A program made the position numbers and the translations under genes. The notes beneath the pieces were generated by a model. That model worked only from the letters and a program-made list of their open reading frames with translations, searched no databases and was not told where the DNA came from. From assembly GCA_024679065.1 (NCBI GenBank), contig JAGIQG010000016.1:14074001-14138000 (forward strand): a DNA stretch of 64,000 bases, written 5' to 3'. Position 1 is the first letter of the stretch. Each line of letters starts with the position of its first letter. The stretch is from Sphyrna mokarran (Eukaryota). Positions 28,666-63,073 of this stretch are shown in pieces.

Positions 28666-28701
28666 AGCTGGAAGTTTTGCAGAAGAAAATTAGTGGGTTA
28701 G
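28666..28701 (+). CDS. Coiled-coil microexon 9 (36 nt): ELEVLQKKISGL
   Basis: ttggtttttcag|AGCTGGAA...GGGTTAG|gtgagt. Confidence 0.88.
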   Translation, partial: SWKFCRRKLVG

Positions 28702-29452
28702 GTGAGTTGTTGGATCTGTAAGCTATTGGAAATCATACCTTTGCCGTCCAATCACTTACCACGCAGACTTGGAAATATGTCGGCCGTTCGTTCATTGCTG
28801 CTGGGTCAGTATCCTGCAATTCCCTTCATCGCAGCACTATGGGTGTGCCAACATCTTAGGGATTGCATTTCGCGAAGGCGGCTCAGCACCAATTTCTCAA
28901 GAGTTTGTCAGAATTGATAAAAAAAATGCTGATCAACCAGCAATGCCCACAACCCATCAATTGTTGTTTCTTTTGGAATTACTACTACACAGTATGCCAT
29001 TGTGGCATTGTGTTCCCGGTTTCCTTCATGGTCTCAATATAGTGACAAAAACCATGTATTAGCTAAATAAAATACATTTTGAAACATGTGACAATGTATT
29101 TAACCCCATCTCCATATTCGATTATTCATCCATTTATCGTTGAACTCTATAATAAAACCTCGAGGAGTCTAACGTTAATGCTTCCCCTGTATTATATTGC
29201 CGTTACCATTGCGATTTTTTGCATCCTTTTATTAGTGAGCACACTCAAAAAAGAGCAGCCTTTCATCCACCCTCACGTCAAGCCATTAGATCCGTTCTGA
29301 CTCGGCGAATGGTCGAACAACCGGATCAAATCGCTCTTTCGTGGCATTCAGCGATTTTTAAAGTCACTTGCGTGTGCAGTTACGTGCGCATAAGCAACGA
29401 ATTCAACGTCATGTCCACATTGAATACACGTCCTTGTTTTACAAATTAACAG

Positions 29453-29470
29453 AAGACAAGATAAAGGCTG
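29453..29470 (+). CDS. Coiled-coil microexon 10 (18 nt, shortened type): EDKIKA
   Basis: tccttgttttacaaattaacag|AAGACAAGATAAAGGCTG|gtgaga; fills the expected slot in the alternating pattern; acceptor weaker. Confidence 0.6.
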
Positions 29471-30799
29471 GTGAGAACGGAATTGTAATTTATTTGAGTC
29501 CAGCATTCGTATCGTTTGTTTGTATATATTGTTGTTTTTGTTCAACTGTCTTTTTGCTCTCCCATCTTGGATCCTATCAAAAACACTACGTCGTTTCACA
29601 AGCAGATCATTTTTCAGGAAAACTTATTTAAGGAAAGATACATTGTTCGAAAGGTTTTTCACAGGAGAACAGTGAAATATACATGTTTGAACAGATGAAT
29701 GGGTTAAGAATGTTGTACTTACGAAATAATCCAGATATTCACAGAGTTCACTCTGGAATTTCAAATCCAGATCCCTTCCCTCCGCTCCCATGAAGTAACT
29801 TCCGCCATTTTGTTGACGTATACGAAAGCAATTTCATACAGGAACCTCAAAGCGCAAAGGCAAACAGATGCTTATACTGCTTAATTTGTGAAGTATTATT
29901 TGCCGGTTATTATGGTATACCGTGCCAACAATGATTCAGATGTAATCAGCCATCCACAGAGTACACGGTTAACATGTCTCAATCTCCTTACTGGAAATTT
30001 GAAATTTACCGTGACTTTTAACCGCAAGCAGTAAGGTCAAATCTGATCCAGAAATCTATGGTTTCGAGCCACGGTCTGGCGACTTCAGGCAATGAGGCAG
30101 GTTGACTTTTCCAGTCCAATACTGCAAAAGGACTGTTGTATTCTCGGAGATGTCTTCAATCGGATTTAACATCGGATTTAGTTTCAGACTACCAATCATT
30201 GGGAGTGTCCTCTGACTTCGATGTTCCTGGTAGCGTGCGCTGATATACAGCTGCAATTGAAACTGCACAATTAAACGAGCTGATAGAAGCGCTGTGCTGT
30301 TTTTTTGAATATTGTGATAAGCCGATTAGCTGCCTCTTTTTGCTACATGATACCTGCGACTGCATTTAAAACAACGAATCCATTTAGTGCGGAGATTAAT
30401 AACAATTTACAAAATAGAAATTATGTTAGTCCTTGCCTTTTCGACCATAAGCTTATGCGGTCTTTGTTATTAATATAATTTTTGACGATCTGCAACTTGC
30501 GCCCGCAGCAGTATGAAAAATAAAGTGTCACAATCCGTGCTGTTTAAAAGTATTCGCATTTGTATAATTTAAACAGACGAAATAAGTCTTGAGAAACTGA
30601 GAGGTATGTGTTTCTTGTGCATTTTCCATGTTTAAATTTCCATTGGAGAGTGAGAGTCATTGGTTGTTTCTGAGCAGGAAGGCAGCATTGGAAATAAACG
30701 ATCAAAATGTGCAATTGTTGTACTTGCATCTGTTTCTTTTTTGGCGATAGTTAAATCCAGGACTGCTCTTCTGATCTATAGTAAAGAGCATTTTAATTA

Positions 30800-31120
30800 A
30801 GATAAGAAAGTCGGAACTTCCCAGGGTGGAAATGTCAATTTCTAGAGGATGTGCGATAAGATAAAAGGAGGAAAGTTTAAAAGAGTTGTGAGAGATTTTC
30901 TCTTTTGCGCAGAGGTTGTTGAGTACCTAAAACGCAATGTCAGAGGAGATGGTACAAACAGATACAAAACCAATGTTTAAGCAGCATTTTCCAGGTACAT
31001 GAATAAGAAGAAATAGTGGGAATCATATGTAGGCAAAATCTACTTAGTTCAGAGTGGCGTCATTTGCCAGCACAGGTTTAGCCGCAGGAGCTAACCCTGT
31101 CCTCGTGCTCTGTTCTATTA
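30800..31120 (+). mobile_element. CR1 LINE 3' end fragment
   Basis: ttcccagggtggaaatgtcaattt...ggaggaaagtttaaa...gcacaggtttagccgcaggagctaaccctgtcctcgtgctctgttcta. Confidence 0.7.
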
Positions 31121-31150
31121 TCCATTCCACGACAGGGCCTGACGCGTATA

Positions 31151-60449: not shown

Positions 60450-61320
60450 GTGACATTATTGTACTTTTGAAAGTTTTTCTTTCAAATTATGTCCTCTGAA
60501 GTTGTAAACAGGCCTCTTTCAGTTTCGATTTCTATTTGTTCTCCAGCTGTCTAAAGAAGTCATTTTATTGCTACTTCACATGTGTTTTGTTTATTTATAC
60601 TACGGCCTGAGTTACTTTTTGGGATTCGTTTTATGCCCCTGCATTGTCAGGAGGAAAAGTGGTGGGCAGGTCAGGTGACATGAGCTCTTCCTTTTTCATT
60701 TTAAGCTTTTCTTTAGTTTCAGAAAGGTCATTAAGCTAAAAGAGATCTCCTATTCTCCATGGTTTTGGAAATTCTGCTGGTTAGCTGAAAGCAAGTTCCA
60801 TGCTTACCTGGAGAAACGAATCCGATGTTGTTGGCTTGACCAAATTCTCTCTCTTTGGTGTTCTGAGAAGCTGTTCTGACATCACTCTGTTCTGTGTGTA
60901 TCAAGAAGGTTGGTGGTAGTGATACGCTGAGAAGTCAGGGTTTTACTTCTTAAATCAAAGTATTAAATTCCTGTATCACGTTAACATTAGTACTTGTTGT
61001 GTTAAACCTCTGAAAGTTTCTTTCTGTTTATGGGAAATTTCTTCTTTTGCAGAATCTTAGACGTAATTGTAAAGGGTTAAACGTTATAGAGGAAGATTTG
61101 ATTTGTTTATAATTGATAAAGATTTTTACTAATATTCTTACTATATATGATCACTCTATTCTTAAATAAATATTGTTTGATAAATCTTCCTTGTGGGTTA
61201 TTTAAATCATAGCTGAGGTGAACTATATCATGCTTATCCTAACCATATTCAAGGTGTAAAACTTATGATCCAGGCAGGCTCCATTAAACAGTTCAGAGTT
61301 TTTGACCTGAACCATAACCA
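60450..61320 (+). mobile_element. Possible solo LTR
   Basis: TG start (tgtgaca), internal AATAAA near 61165, end resembling ...ccataac(c)a; no target-site duplication verified. Confidence 0.3.
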
Positions 61321-61344
61321 TGTTGAAACACGCATTGAAAATAG

Positions 61345-62745
61345 AAACAGCAATGAGCTAATCGGCACTTTGAGTCTGCTGCACCTTTCATTTTGGTCAT
61401 GTTGATCGTTGAATTCAATATCCTGAATTCACCATCCCCCCATATCGCTTGGTCTCTTTAGTCCGAAGAGCAATAGCAATATTCAATTTTGAAATCATAC
61501 AAAAATTAGGTTCTGACTACTTCATGCTGCAGTGAATACCACAGATTCGCCGCTCTCTGTGCCAAGTTATTTCTCCCCACCTGAGACATAAAAGGTTTTC
61601 CCCATAATGCTATGACCACCAGTCCTGTACTTTCTCACCACTAGGAATGTTTTTTTTCTGAATTGACCCTGTCTAATTCTTAGAATTATATATGACTTTA
61701 TGAAGTCCCTTCTCTCTCCTCTAAACTCCAATAACTACAATCCTAACTGACTTAAGCCCTCATATGAAAGTCCTGCCATTCTAGTGGTCAGCCTGGTAAA
61801 CCACGGCACCATCTCTGCAGCAGGAACATCTTTCCTCAGGTAAGAACACTGTAACTGCACATGATATGCAGGTGTAGTCTCACCAACGTTCTATATATTT
61901 ACAGGAGAATATCCCTTTCCTGTACTCATATGGTACTGCAATGGGGGTGAAAGTACCACTTCCCTCAGTTGCAGCCTACTGCACCTGTATGATTCCTTTC
62001 AGAAACTGATGCACGAGGACAGCACTGAGTATACAACATTCAATTTACTCCTACTCAAATCATAATCTTCCTTCTGATTTTTGCTATCAAAGTTGATCAC
62101 CTCACATTTATTCACAATCTAATGCATCTACCACGCATACACTCACTCAAACATTCTTTTCAAATCACGCTGAAGCATCTCTGCATCCTCCTCACAGCTC
62201 ACTCTTCAATCCAACATTGTGTGAGGTGCAAATTTGGATATAATGCATTTATTTTCCTCTTCAAACTCATACTGATCGTGTGGTAACGCACTAGCTATTG
62301 CCTGCCAAACAGAGAAATAGTCATTTATTTCAACTCTACGATTCCTGTCTGCTAACTGACTTTTTATCCATCTCGACCCACCATCTGCTCTCCCGTGCAC
62401 CTTTACTTCATTAATAATCTTTTCTGTGGGACCTTGGCTAAGGACTTCTAAAAGACTAAATAAACCAATTGACCGGTTCTCCCTGGTCATCTCTGCTCAT
62501 TACGCCTAGCAACAGAGAATCGCTCTATGTAGATCTGTCAAGTATGATTTCCGTTTTGGAAATTCCTGCTGACTTTGTCAGATTACACAGCTATTTTCCA
62601 AATCTGTGCTATGATACCCTTCGTGATGTACTTCTGCAAATTCCCCTGCTTTCGACGTTAGGCTCACTAATCGCAGCCTCCCTTTTAGAAAGCAGGCTTA
62701 CATTCGCTTTCCTCCAACCTACAGGAACCATTCTTCAGTACAAAT
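61345..62745 (-). mobile_element. Decayed CR1 LINE (RT to 3' end)
   Basis: Minus ORF KIINEVKVHG...RWIKSQLADRNRRVEIND...KCIISKFA; tail atagaaacagcaatgagc. Confidence 0.78.
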
Positions 62746-63037
62746 AATTATTTTAATTAAGTATCTTCAATTTCATGCATAGGCTACTTCAGACTGAACA
62801 ATAGCACATTAATAACATAAGCTTAACAAATAGATAACCGTCTTGTGTAGGATTTGAACAATATGCAGCCATTGCTGCTATGGCGAATATATGAAATGTT
62901 TTATGATTTAAACTGATTTTGCAAACACGATAACTTGTGAAAATGACTTAATATAGAAAGTGCACTTCTGTATATTCTATTCCTGCGATTTATGCAAATA
63001 ACGTCCTGATTTTTCCTTCAACATTTTCTTTCCTCAG

Positions 63038-63073
63038 AAATCGAAAACGTCAAAAAATTGGTCAGCGAACTCG
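63038..63073 (+). CDS. Coiled-coil microexon 19 (36 nt): EIENVKKLVSEL; gene continues beyond the window
   Basis: acattttctttcctcag|AAATCGAA...GAACTCG|gtgagt. Confidence 0.88.

Follow-up and report, generated by a model that had tools for sequence, protein, structure and literature searches.

The DNA considered here, 64,000 nt of the 2.77-Gb genome of Sphyrna mokarran (C668:14,074,001-14,138,000, referred to below as the window), forms the middle of a gene of ~552 kb in which a long array of micro-exons precedes a terminal exon encoding a B30.2 (PRY/SPRY) domain. The sequence examined comprises the window with 400 kb upstream and 200 kb downstream of it, 664 kb in total, and positions outside the window are given in window coordinates as negative or positive offsets. 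The first called micro-exon lies ~305.7 kb before the window start (-305.7 kb), and the terminal B30.2 exon lies at C668:14320310-14320828 (+246.3 kb), 182 kb beyond the window end, with polyA-type hexamers downstream. Of the 111 confident micro-exons in the gene, 49 have 36 nt and one has 33 nt, while the 27-nt exons divide into 11 of the long and 50 of the short type. Together they encode 1,148 residues; with ten weaker exons added by hand, the chain amounts to 1,239 residues and holds no stop. The median intron is 3.4 kb, and the coding share of the micro-exons is 0.7%. What we observe in the DNA is this exon array, with two exon types alternating in heptad register and with open frames, its terminal B30.2 exon, and a family of similar loci, one of which, a paralogue built of the same exon types, is closed by the next upstream B30.2 at -358 kb.

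Within the window itself, 19 exons are callable (eight of 36 nt, ten of 27 nt including two weak ones, and one of 18 nt; Table 1). In each of them, the first two bases finish a codon split by an intron (phase 1/1), the acceptor is YAG, and the donor is GT on the + strand; when joined, the exons encode 192 residues without a stop. The exons quoted for positions 28666-63073 by an earlier, sequence-only reading of this DNA are present at their places, on this strand and in this phase, and its counts describe the whole window rather than that interval alone. Its donor-site counts also hold, with GTG in five of the eight 36-nt exons (two others use GTA, one GTC) and GTA in all ten 27-nt exons (the calls at 2476 and 4681 being weak), and the bias extends across the gene (GTA in 45/50 short-type against 25/49 36-nt exons, Fisher p=2e-5). 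The four short introns listed there between long and short exons (226, 751, 603, and 516 nt) are exact, but the exon behind the 751-nt intron has 18 rather than 27 nt, and short long-to-short introns are not a property of the gene as a whole (medians of 2.8 vs 3.4 kb, p=0.48; <800 nt in 6/44 vs 1/44). The exon at 19757, and probably that at 2476, are 27-nt exons of the long type, with core residues at positions 2, 5, and 9; together with the 18-nt exon at 29453, which has a counterpart at +130,670, they produce three 3-4-4-3 stutters in the window chain. The candidate at 30577 and a 27-nt reading of 29453 were excluded from this chain. The idea of a C-type-lectin neck was likewise dropped, the candidate at 40016 being no lectin exon.

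Table 1. Features of the window, in window coordinates. A36, 36-nt long-type exon; A27, 27-nt long-type exon; B27 and B18, 27- and 18-nt short-type exons.
Feature	Position	Strand	Donor	Remarks
Gene middle	1..64000	+		gene of ~552 kb, micro-exons then terminal B30.2 exon
A36	820..855	+	GTG	phase 1/1
B27	1082..1108	+	GTA	
Probable A27, weak call	2476..2502	+	GTA	poor acceptor, 1.6 bits; outside confident set
Probable B27, weak call	4681..4707	+	GTA	16.7 bits
A36	8305..8340	+	GTA	
B27	17846..17872	+	GTA	
A27	19757..19783	+	GTA	last residue Cys; in A27 training set; pairs with 22683 to give an 18-residue stutter module
B27	22683..22709	+	GTA	
A36	28666..28701	+	GTG	
B18	29453..29470	+	GTG	no GT at 27-nt position
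A36	34147..34182	+	GTG	
B27	37574..37600	+	GTA	
A36	42036..42071	+	GTA	
B27	42675..42701	+	GTA	
A36	48914..48949	+	GTC	
B27	49466..49492	+	GTA	below confident cut; best filler of its gap
A36	53729..53764	+	GTG	
B27	58295..58321	+	GTA	
A36	63038..63073	+	GTG	

A position-blind scan of 264 kb returned 77 candidate rows on the + strand and 3 on the - strand, and a trained profile applied to the 664 kb gave 123 matches of >=20 bits on the + strand, those of the upstream paralogue included, and 0 on the - strand. When the gene was scanned with splice sites only, 27-nt exons numbered 56 on + and 3 on -, and 36-nt exons 46 on + and 5 on -, compared to 3-19 exons at every other length (the splice-site matrices and exon profiles being trained on the same exons that they score). 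Transferred to 120 kb of a paralogue left out of its training, the profile gave 12 matches of >=20 bits on the + strand and 0 on the - strand. One match, at -91,624, belongs to a 30-copy repeat and was dropped from the confident set. Stops occur in 0 of the 123 exon-like matches, in a scan run without a stop filter, compared to 16-18% of column-resampled exons, although this count is somewhat favoured by a profile trained on open exons. Exon identity is highest at codon position 2, followed by position 1, and lowest at position 3. Judged by its sequence, the window probably belongs to one intact, selected gene.

The sequence-only reading had proposed that a 36-nt and a 27-nt exon together encode 12 + 9 = 21 residues locked to three heptads, with core residues at positions 2, 5, 9, and 12 of the long exon and at 4 and 7 of the short exon, the last of these usually Lys. 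Across the gene, positions 2, 5, and 9 of the 36-nt exons (n=49) are hydrophobic in 94, 90, and 88% of cases, respectively, and position 4 of the short-type exons (n=50) in 98%, in agreement with most of the proposed core, whereas position 12 of the long exon is hydrophobic in just 31% of the 49 and is mostly T, A, L, or S. Lys at position 7 of the short exon is found in 38/50, as described, and a position-blind seed set gives the same core pattern as the trained set. The expected separation into two exon types is also seen, with a short-type exon as the nearest neighbour of 0/49 36-nt exons. The types alternate in 88/111 adjacent pairs, compared to a mean of 55 and a maximum of 74 in 10,000 shuffles (counted before the one repeat-borne match was dropped), and the hydrophobic power at period 3.5 is 31.3 in the real order, compared to 13.7 +/- 2.0 (maximum 19.0) in 100 shuffled orders. 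As the power falls when the order is shuffled, the register depends on the order of the exons.

The 21-residue, three-heptad module is indeed the main unit of the array, accounting for 44/51 long-short modules, but strict locking to 21 residues does not hold, as the remaining 7/51 comprise 18 residues (five 9+9 and two 12+6), each corresponding to one stutter. With the register assigned such that a falls at 2, 9, and 16 and d at 5, 12, and 19, the core is weak at d12 (Thr/Ala) and at d19, which is Lys in 31/41 modules. The flanking charges of these 41 modules are -0.90 at g1 with +0.66 at e6, and +0.37 at g15 with -0.37 at e20, a pattern of g/e charges that would suit a parallel in-register coil. 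We also observe, at -217,520 to -209,400, a group of non-coil micro-exons of 21/24 nt that contain Pro, Gly, and Trp and have nearly identical acceptors; ~35 kb without a confident exon follow. This group reads as a hinge or as a gene boundary, and a few of its Pro/Gly exons of 21/24 nt, near -214 to -209 kb, resemble hinges, comparable linkers being present between the predicted helices of relatives. A further observation concerns the A27 exons (e.g. 19757-19783), 5/11 of which end in Cys at a core position, where an inter-chain disulphide or a metal site is possible, and 9/11 of which have A, not G, at their end.

An intact B30.2 domain occupies the last exon (Pfam SPRY, E=2.6e-15). Its best solved relative is BTN3A1, and a fold model of this domain matches the B30.2 domains of TRIM15, TRIM7, and BTN3A1 (predicted local distance difference test score, pLDDT, of 67 for the best of five models and 34-36 for the other four). 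His351 of the BTN3A1 B30.2 domain binds phosphoantigen (PMC7348870; articles cited here and below by PMC number are drawn on for the accessible parts of their text). In the present B30.2 a Ser aligns at this place, and His is found there in 0/10 aligned members. A first homologue search with the B30.2 exon returned TRIMs only. A tree of 39 B30.2 domains (with rows cut using the clade profile, a midpoint root, and no bird or mammal rows) splits the clade to which it belongs 100/100 from the TRIM and butyrophilin rows, four of the latter being BTN rows of the same genome. The array holds this one B30.2, and no second B30.2 or other terminal domain was found in it, including in its 43-kb gap.

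Genome-wide, 148 B30.2 matches were obtained, among which six on C668 and one on a second contig, C1548, stand apart at the top. The clade consists of eight loci in this genome (six on C668 and two on C1548, one with an internal stop) and nine database proteins, the interrupted member being that at C1548:99.10 Mb, which has an internal TGA in its B30.2. A search of the whole genome with the short-exon motif gave 72 matches, against 33 in the control. Of the 72, 26 lie on C668 at 8.58-14.30 Mb, each sharing its strand with the clade B30.2 that follows downstream, and 12 on the minus strand of C1548 at 98.1-101.2 Mb; the corresponding search with the long-type motif was too loose (876 matches vs 502 in the control). 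On C1548:99.10-101.16 Mb, minus strand, eleven short-exon motif matches are spread over 2 Mb upstream of the TGA-bearing clade B30.2, possibly as a gene of up to 2 Mb or as several genes. All 53 matches to class I of the major histocompatibility complex (MHC) lie on C1548, at 85.8-95.8 Mb, with the C1548 arrays 3-6 Mb away. Two family members sit in the MHC-linked TRIM cluster; most high-scoring butyrophilin-type Ig matches are also on C1548 near MHC class I.

Close relatives, identified by looking up 10 among at least 150 matches listed, were found in cartilaginous fishes only (Callorhinchus, Scyliorhinus, Leucoraja, Narcine, and Cetorhinus), under database labels that are TRIM39-, TRIM69-, TRIM58-, A33-, nuclear-pore-anchor-, or myosin-like. 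The relatives of 945 and 1,697 amino acids (aa), which are predicted models, consist of coiled coil and SPRY only, and relatives carry PF00622 only, where Pfam was shown; the 945-aa relative is predicted from its single sequence (pLDDT 55) to form long helices split by linkers. Look-alikes in the atlas comprise long chordate clusters that bear SPRY and for which neither an Ig nor a RING family is shown. Full-text searches, which covered titles and the starts of abstracts with most subscription journals outside their coverage, returned no description of such genes in cartilaginous fishes, although supplements could list shark B30.2 genes, and the accessible parts of PMC12841164, PMC10445537, and PMC4455283 do not describe the family. 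The proteins are already in databases under other names; the gene type itself we did not find described.

Domains that would assign the gene to a known class were sought in the same 664 kb. The N-terminal 160 residues of six shark, ray, and frog TRIMs gave no RING/B-box match there (best E 0.18), and neither did the IgV and IgC domains of BTN from the same genome in tblastn searches (best E 0.38 and 0.77). Among the genome-wide matches to IgV (36) and C2-set_3 (28), 0 fall within C668 8-15 Mb or C1548 98-102.5 Mb, and a separate V-set search scored 150 of 1,261 candidates. No BTN transmembrane-exon match and no convincing candidate for such an exon were found in the 664 kb, where the 5' end is not mapped. 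A Pfam scan of the 52 kb between the stop of the upstream paralogue and the first micro-exon placed 0/144 open reading frames (ORFs) over the cut-off. Candidates for a signal-like first exon occur at close to background numbers (9 rows on + vs 4 on - here, and 1 vs 4 in a second paralogue, E, the array of which starts ~60 kb after the preceding gene), and the 5' regions of the main gene and of paralogue E share repeats only, with no coding similarity. Elsewhere on C668, at 0.99-5.3 Mb and at least 3 Mb from the nearest array, lies a cluster of IgV genes, two of which look nectin-like.

Growth of the gene by duplication of a two-exon cassette, as suggested by the sequence-only reading, is likely, but the process appears to be old. 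Identity reaches 85% in the most similar pair of exons, and for the eight most similar pairs the flanking introns score as random pairs do, such that no recent cassette duplication with intron similarity is found among these eight. Neighbouring exons are slightly more alike than distant ones, and three-exon blocks recur (7 runs, compared to a mean of 2.1 and a maximum of 7 in 60 shuffles), a weak indication that some duplicated blocks hold three exons. In contrast to the old duplications of the main gene, paralogue B has two identical short-exon matches 17 kb apart (C668:13,280,792 and 13,298,010), which reflect either a recent duplication or a repeat in the assembly. Near the 5' end, at -326,506 to -322,026, there is a tandem repeat with a unit of ~1.85 kb and 70% identity, in which a 27-nt exon-like segment is open in copy one and has an apparent stop in copy two; this may be a decayed duplication of an intron plus exon.

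The further suggestion that skipping of exon pairs could tune the rod is not supported by the internal isoform differences available (n=4, from RefSeq predicted models of three relatives, near the C-terminus), which amount to 6, 9, 9, and 9 residues, that is, single exons, and never to 21. Such single-exon differences break the register. Similarly, two annotation versions of a Callorhinchus gene of ~1,700 residues are distinguished by clean blocks of 9 and 12 residues and by none of 21, and these exon sizes thus appear to be common to chimaeras and elasmobranchs.

Based on its domain content, the gene fails to join any of three known groups: the butyrophilins (no Ig found), the chicken BG genes (B30.2 present, no IgV found), and the TRIM genes (no RING/B-box found). 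Butyrophilins (BTN3A1 and BTN2A1, as well as the BTN genes of this genome on C1548) resemble it in having small phase-1 heptad exons ahead of a single terminal B30.2 exon; in the butyrophilins of this genome, 27-nt phase-1 exons lie before B30.2, in one gene with the same early Trp. They differ in their IgV, IgC, and transmembrane exons and in having few heptad exons, whereas here none of those domains was found and there are >110 heptad exons, and the phosphoantigen-pocket His351 of BTN3 is replaced by Ser. Chicken BG genes share a long coiled coil built from many symmetric micro-exons and form a multigene family with MHC-linked members; they have 13-36 exons of 21 (sometimes 24) nt, each encoding one heptad (PMC4046983), whereas here 36- and 27-nt exon types share three heptads. 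BG proteins also have an IgV and a transmembrane segment and no B30.2, while here the B30.2 is kept, Ig is apparently absent, and the genes reach ~0.5 Mb, which makes the two arrangements nearly mirror images. TRIM-B30.2 proteins (TRIM39, TRIM69, TRIM58, "A33-like") likewise join a coiled coil to a C-terminal B30.2, but have a RING/B-box, of which none was found here in 664 kb, and their coil is a short antiparallel scaffold (PMC4455283), as opposed to >1,000 residues with charges that would suit a parallel coil. Reviews point out that orphan B30.2 domains might bind BG tails (PMC8813856, PMC5938342). By analogy with these systems, the best reading is that the gene resembles a butyrophilin tail expanded in the manner of BG. 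The enterophilins of the guinea pig are soluble proteins with an extended leucine zipper and a B30.2 domain, mammalian, shorter, and found in enterocytes. For enterophilin-1, a review lists binding to sorting nexin 1 and a lowering of EGFR at the cell surface (PMC13749957). Enterophilins may share the architecture of the present gene, and no mammalian protein is among the identified clade members. The micro-exon genes (MEGs) of schistosomes also have many symmetric micro-exons open to frame-keeping skipping. To our knowledge, they are unrelated secreted parasite proteins without heptad grammar or B30.2.

Taking these observations into account, we favour, with a probability of roughly 0.6, a soluble rod, ~170-185 nm long, formed by a parallel coiled coil. 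It would offer paired B30.2 heads to a protein target and serve as a spacer or tether, with no ligase activity of its own. The exons would be spliced into one chain of ~1,150-1,240 residues or more, and the rod would be a parallel in-register oligomer, most simply a dimer, of this length (coiled-coil rise 0.1485 nm per residue), rendered flexible by the stutters of the 18-residue modules, by the weak core at two of three d positions (Thr/Ala and Lys), and by a few Pro/Gly hinge exons. Oligomerisation would set at least two B30.2 heads side by side and thus allow avid binding of a protein target, by analogy with the coiled coils in butyrophilin tails and TRIM proteins. As no Ig, transmembrane, or RING exon was found, the protein is most likely a soluble cytoplasmic adaptor without its own ubiquitin-ligase activity, and it probably has a role in immunity or in the epithelial cytoskeleton and trafficking. 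The gene would have originated from a butyrophilin/TRIM-type 3' end, with 27-nt phase-1 exons before B30.2, through old and repeated duplication of the two-exon cassette, with symmetric exons keeping the frame and selection on the register keeping the alternation.

Several points weigh against this interpretation. Splicing into one chain was deduced from the DNA and from the predicted models of relatives and was not observed, and most database relatives have 175-460 aa, which fits truncated models or real short transcripts. Of the adjacent exon pairs, 23/111 do not alternate, several gaps hold no convincing exon, and a gap of 43 kb interrupts the array at -217 to -175 kb; the training of matrices and profiles on the exons that they score, described above, belongs here as well. 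Lys at d in 31/41 modules is not what a stable homodimer usually shows; a partner chain or a trimer could account for it. The tree places the B30.2 domain with neither butyrophilins nor TRIMs. Finally, the 5' end was not found, and 3/10 relative records (from two genes) start with a signal-like hydrophobic stretch.

If real, this hydrophobic start, seen in the Leucoraja and Callorhinchus models, would make the rod and head a secreted or membrane-anchored protein with a short signal or anchor exon that was missed here, acting outside the cell (in mucus, in an egg-case or seminal matrix, or as a scaffold) or hanging like a BG/butyrophilin tail without Ig. We consider this unlikely, though not far-fetched: there is a signal-like ATG exon with a phase-1 donor at -334,888, and the Cys at the core end of 5/11 A27 exons could cross-link chains, but 7/10 relative records have no such start, the signal-like candidates of both genes are near background in the counts given above, the 5' regions of paralogue E and the main gene have only repeats in common, and the butyrophilin B30.2 is intracellular (PMC7348870). 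Less likely still is an array that is not one coding unit, in which internal promoters and polyA sites would yield a set of shorter products: tropomyosin-like ones consisting of the rod only, comparable to the BG-derived zipper protein of chicken, and others with a short rod and B30.2. While the short database relatives could be read in this way, strand, phase, and grammar are uniform, no other terminal domain was found within the array, and the 945- and 1,697-aa models join rod to B30.2.

Regulated skipping of exon pairs, tuning rod length in 21-residue steps, is very improbable as the main function. All called exons are frame-symmetric, 21-residue modules predominate (44/51), donor sites differ between exon types, and BG tails vary by alternative splicing (PMC5938342); against this stand the single-exon isoform differences of the relatives, the 9- and 12-residue blocks of the Callorhinchus versions, and long-to-short introns that are not shorter overall. 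That the array consists of chance splice-like motifs, or is a decayed pseudogene, is scarcely credible. In its favour are the very small size of the individual exons, the two weak calls in the window, the one confident match that turned out to be a repeat, and the stop that interrupts the B30.2 of the family member at C1548:99.10 Mb. Against it stand the strand and length spectra, the transfer of the profile to an unseen paralogue, 0/123 stops, and an intact B30.2 with polyA-type hexamers downstream; chance is already refuted.

A bolder extension of the adaptor reading, which we regard as quite doubtful, is that these genes are ancient giant B30.2 "rulers" of cartilaginous fishes, in which alternative splicing of >100 symmetric exons sets rod length, register breaks, and partner choice across at least eight paralogues with divergent heads. 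If true, this would amount to a combinatorial, splice-generated repertoire of intracellular sensors or tethers from the MHC-linked TRIM/butyrophilin region, a mirror of chicken BG, in which the Ig head was kept and B30.2 lost. Independently of this, owing to exons of 18-48 nt and a coding share of <1%, a multi-megabase gene family has been missed by annotation or mislabelled as TRIM or myosin-like. The array provides a natural case of exon architecture shaped by coiled-coil register, with two exon types, neither encoding whole heptads, alternating in an old array, and the gene makes it possible to test directly whether micro-exon skipping is constrained by selection on register. To the comparison of butyrophilins and BG it contributes a third arrangement, a long rod with B30.2 and apparently no Ig, and the presence of members at 3-6 Mb from MHC class I has a bearing on how the butyrophilin/BG immune gene families originated.

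The DNA between the exons is rich in repeats. Introns throughout (e.g. window 6367-6881, 10322-11071, and 32133-32765) hold many copies of short and long interspersed repeats, and long reverse-transcriptase ORFs lie in the flanking DNA. In the intron after exon 42675, a 137-bp inverted repeat of 98.5% identity (window 42999-43135 and 43548-43684) is probably a small DNA element.

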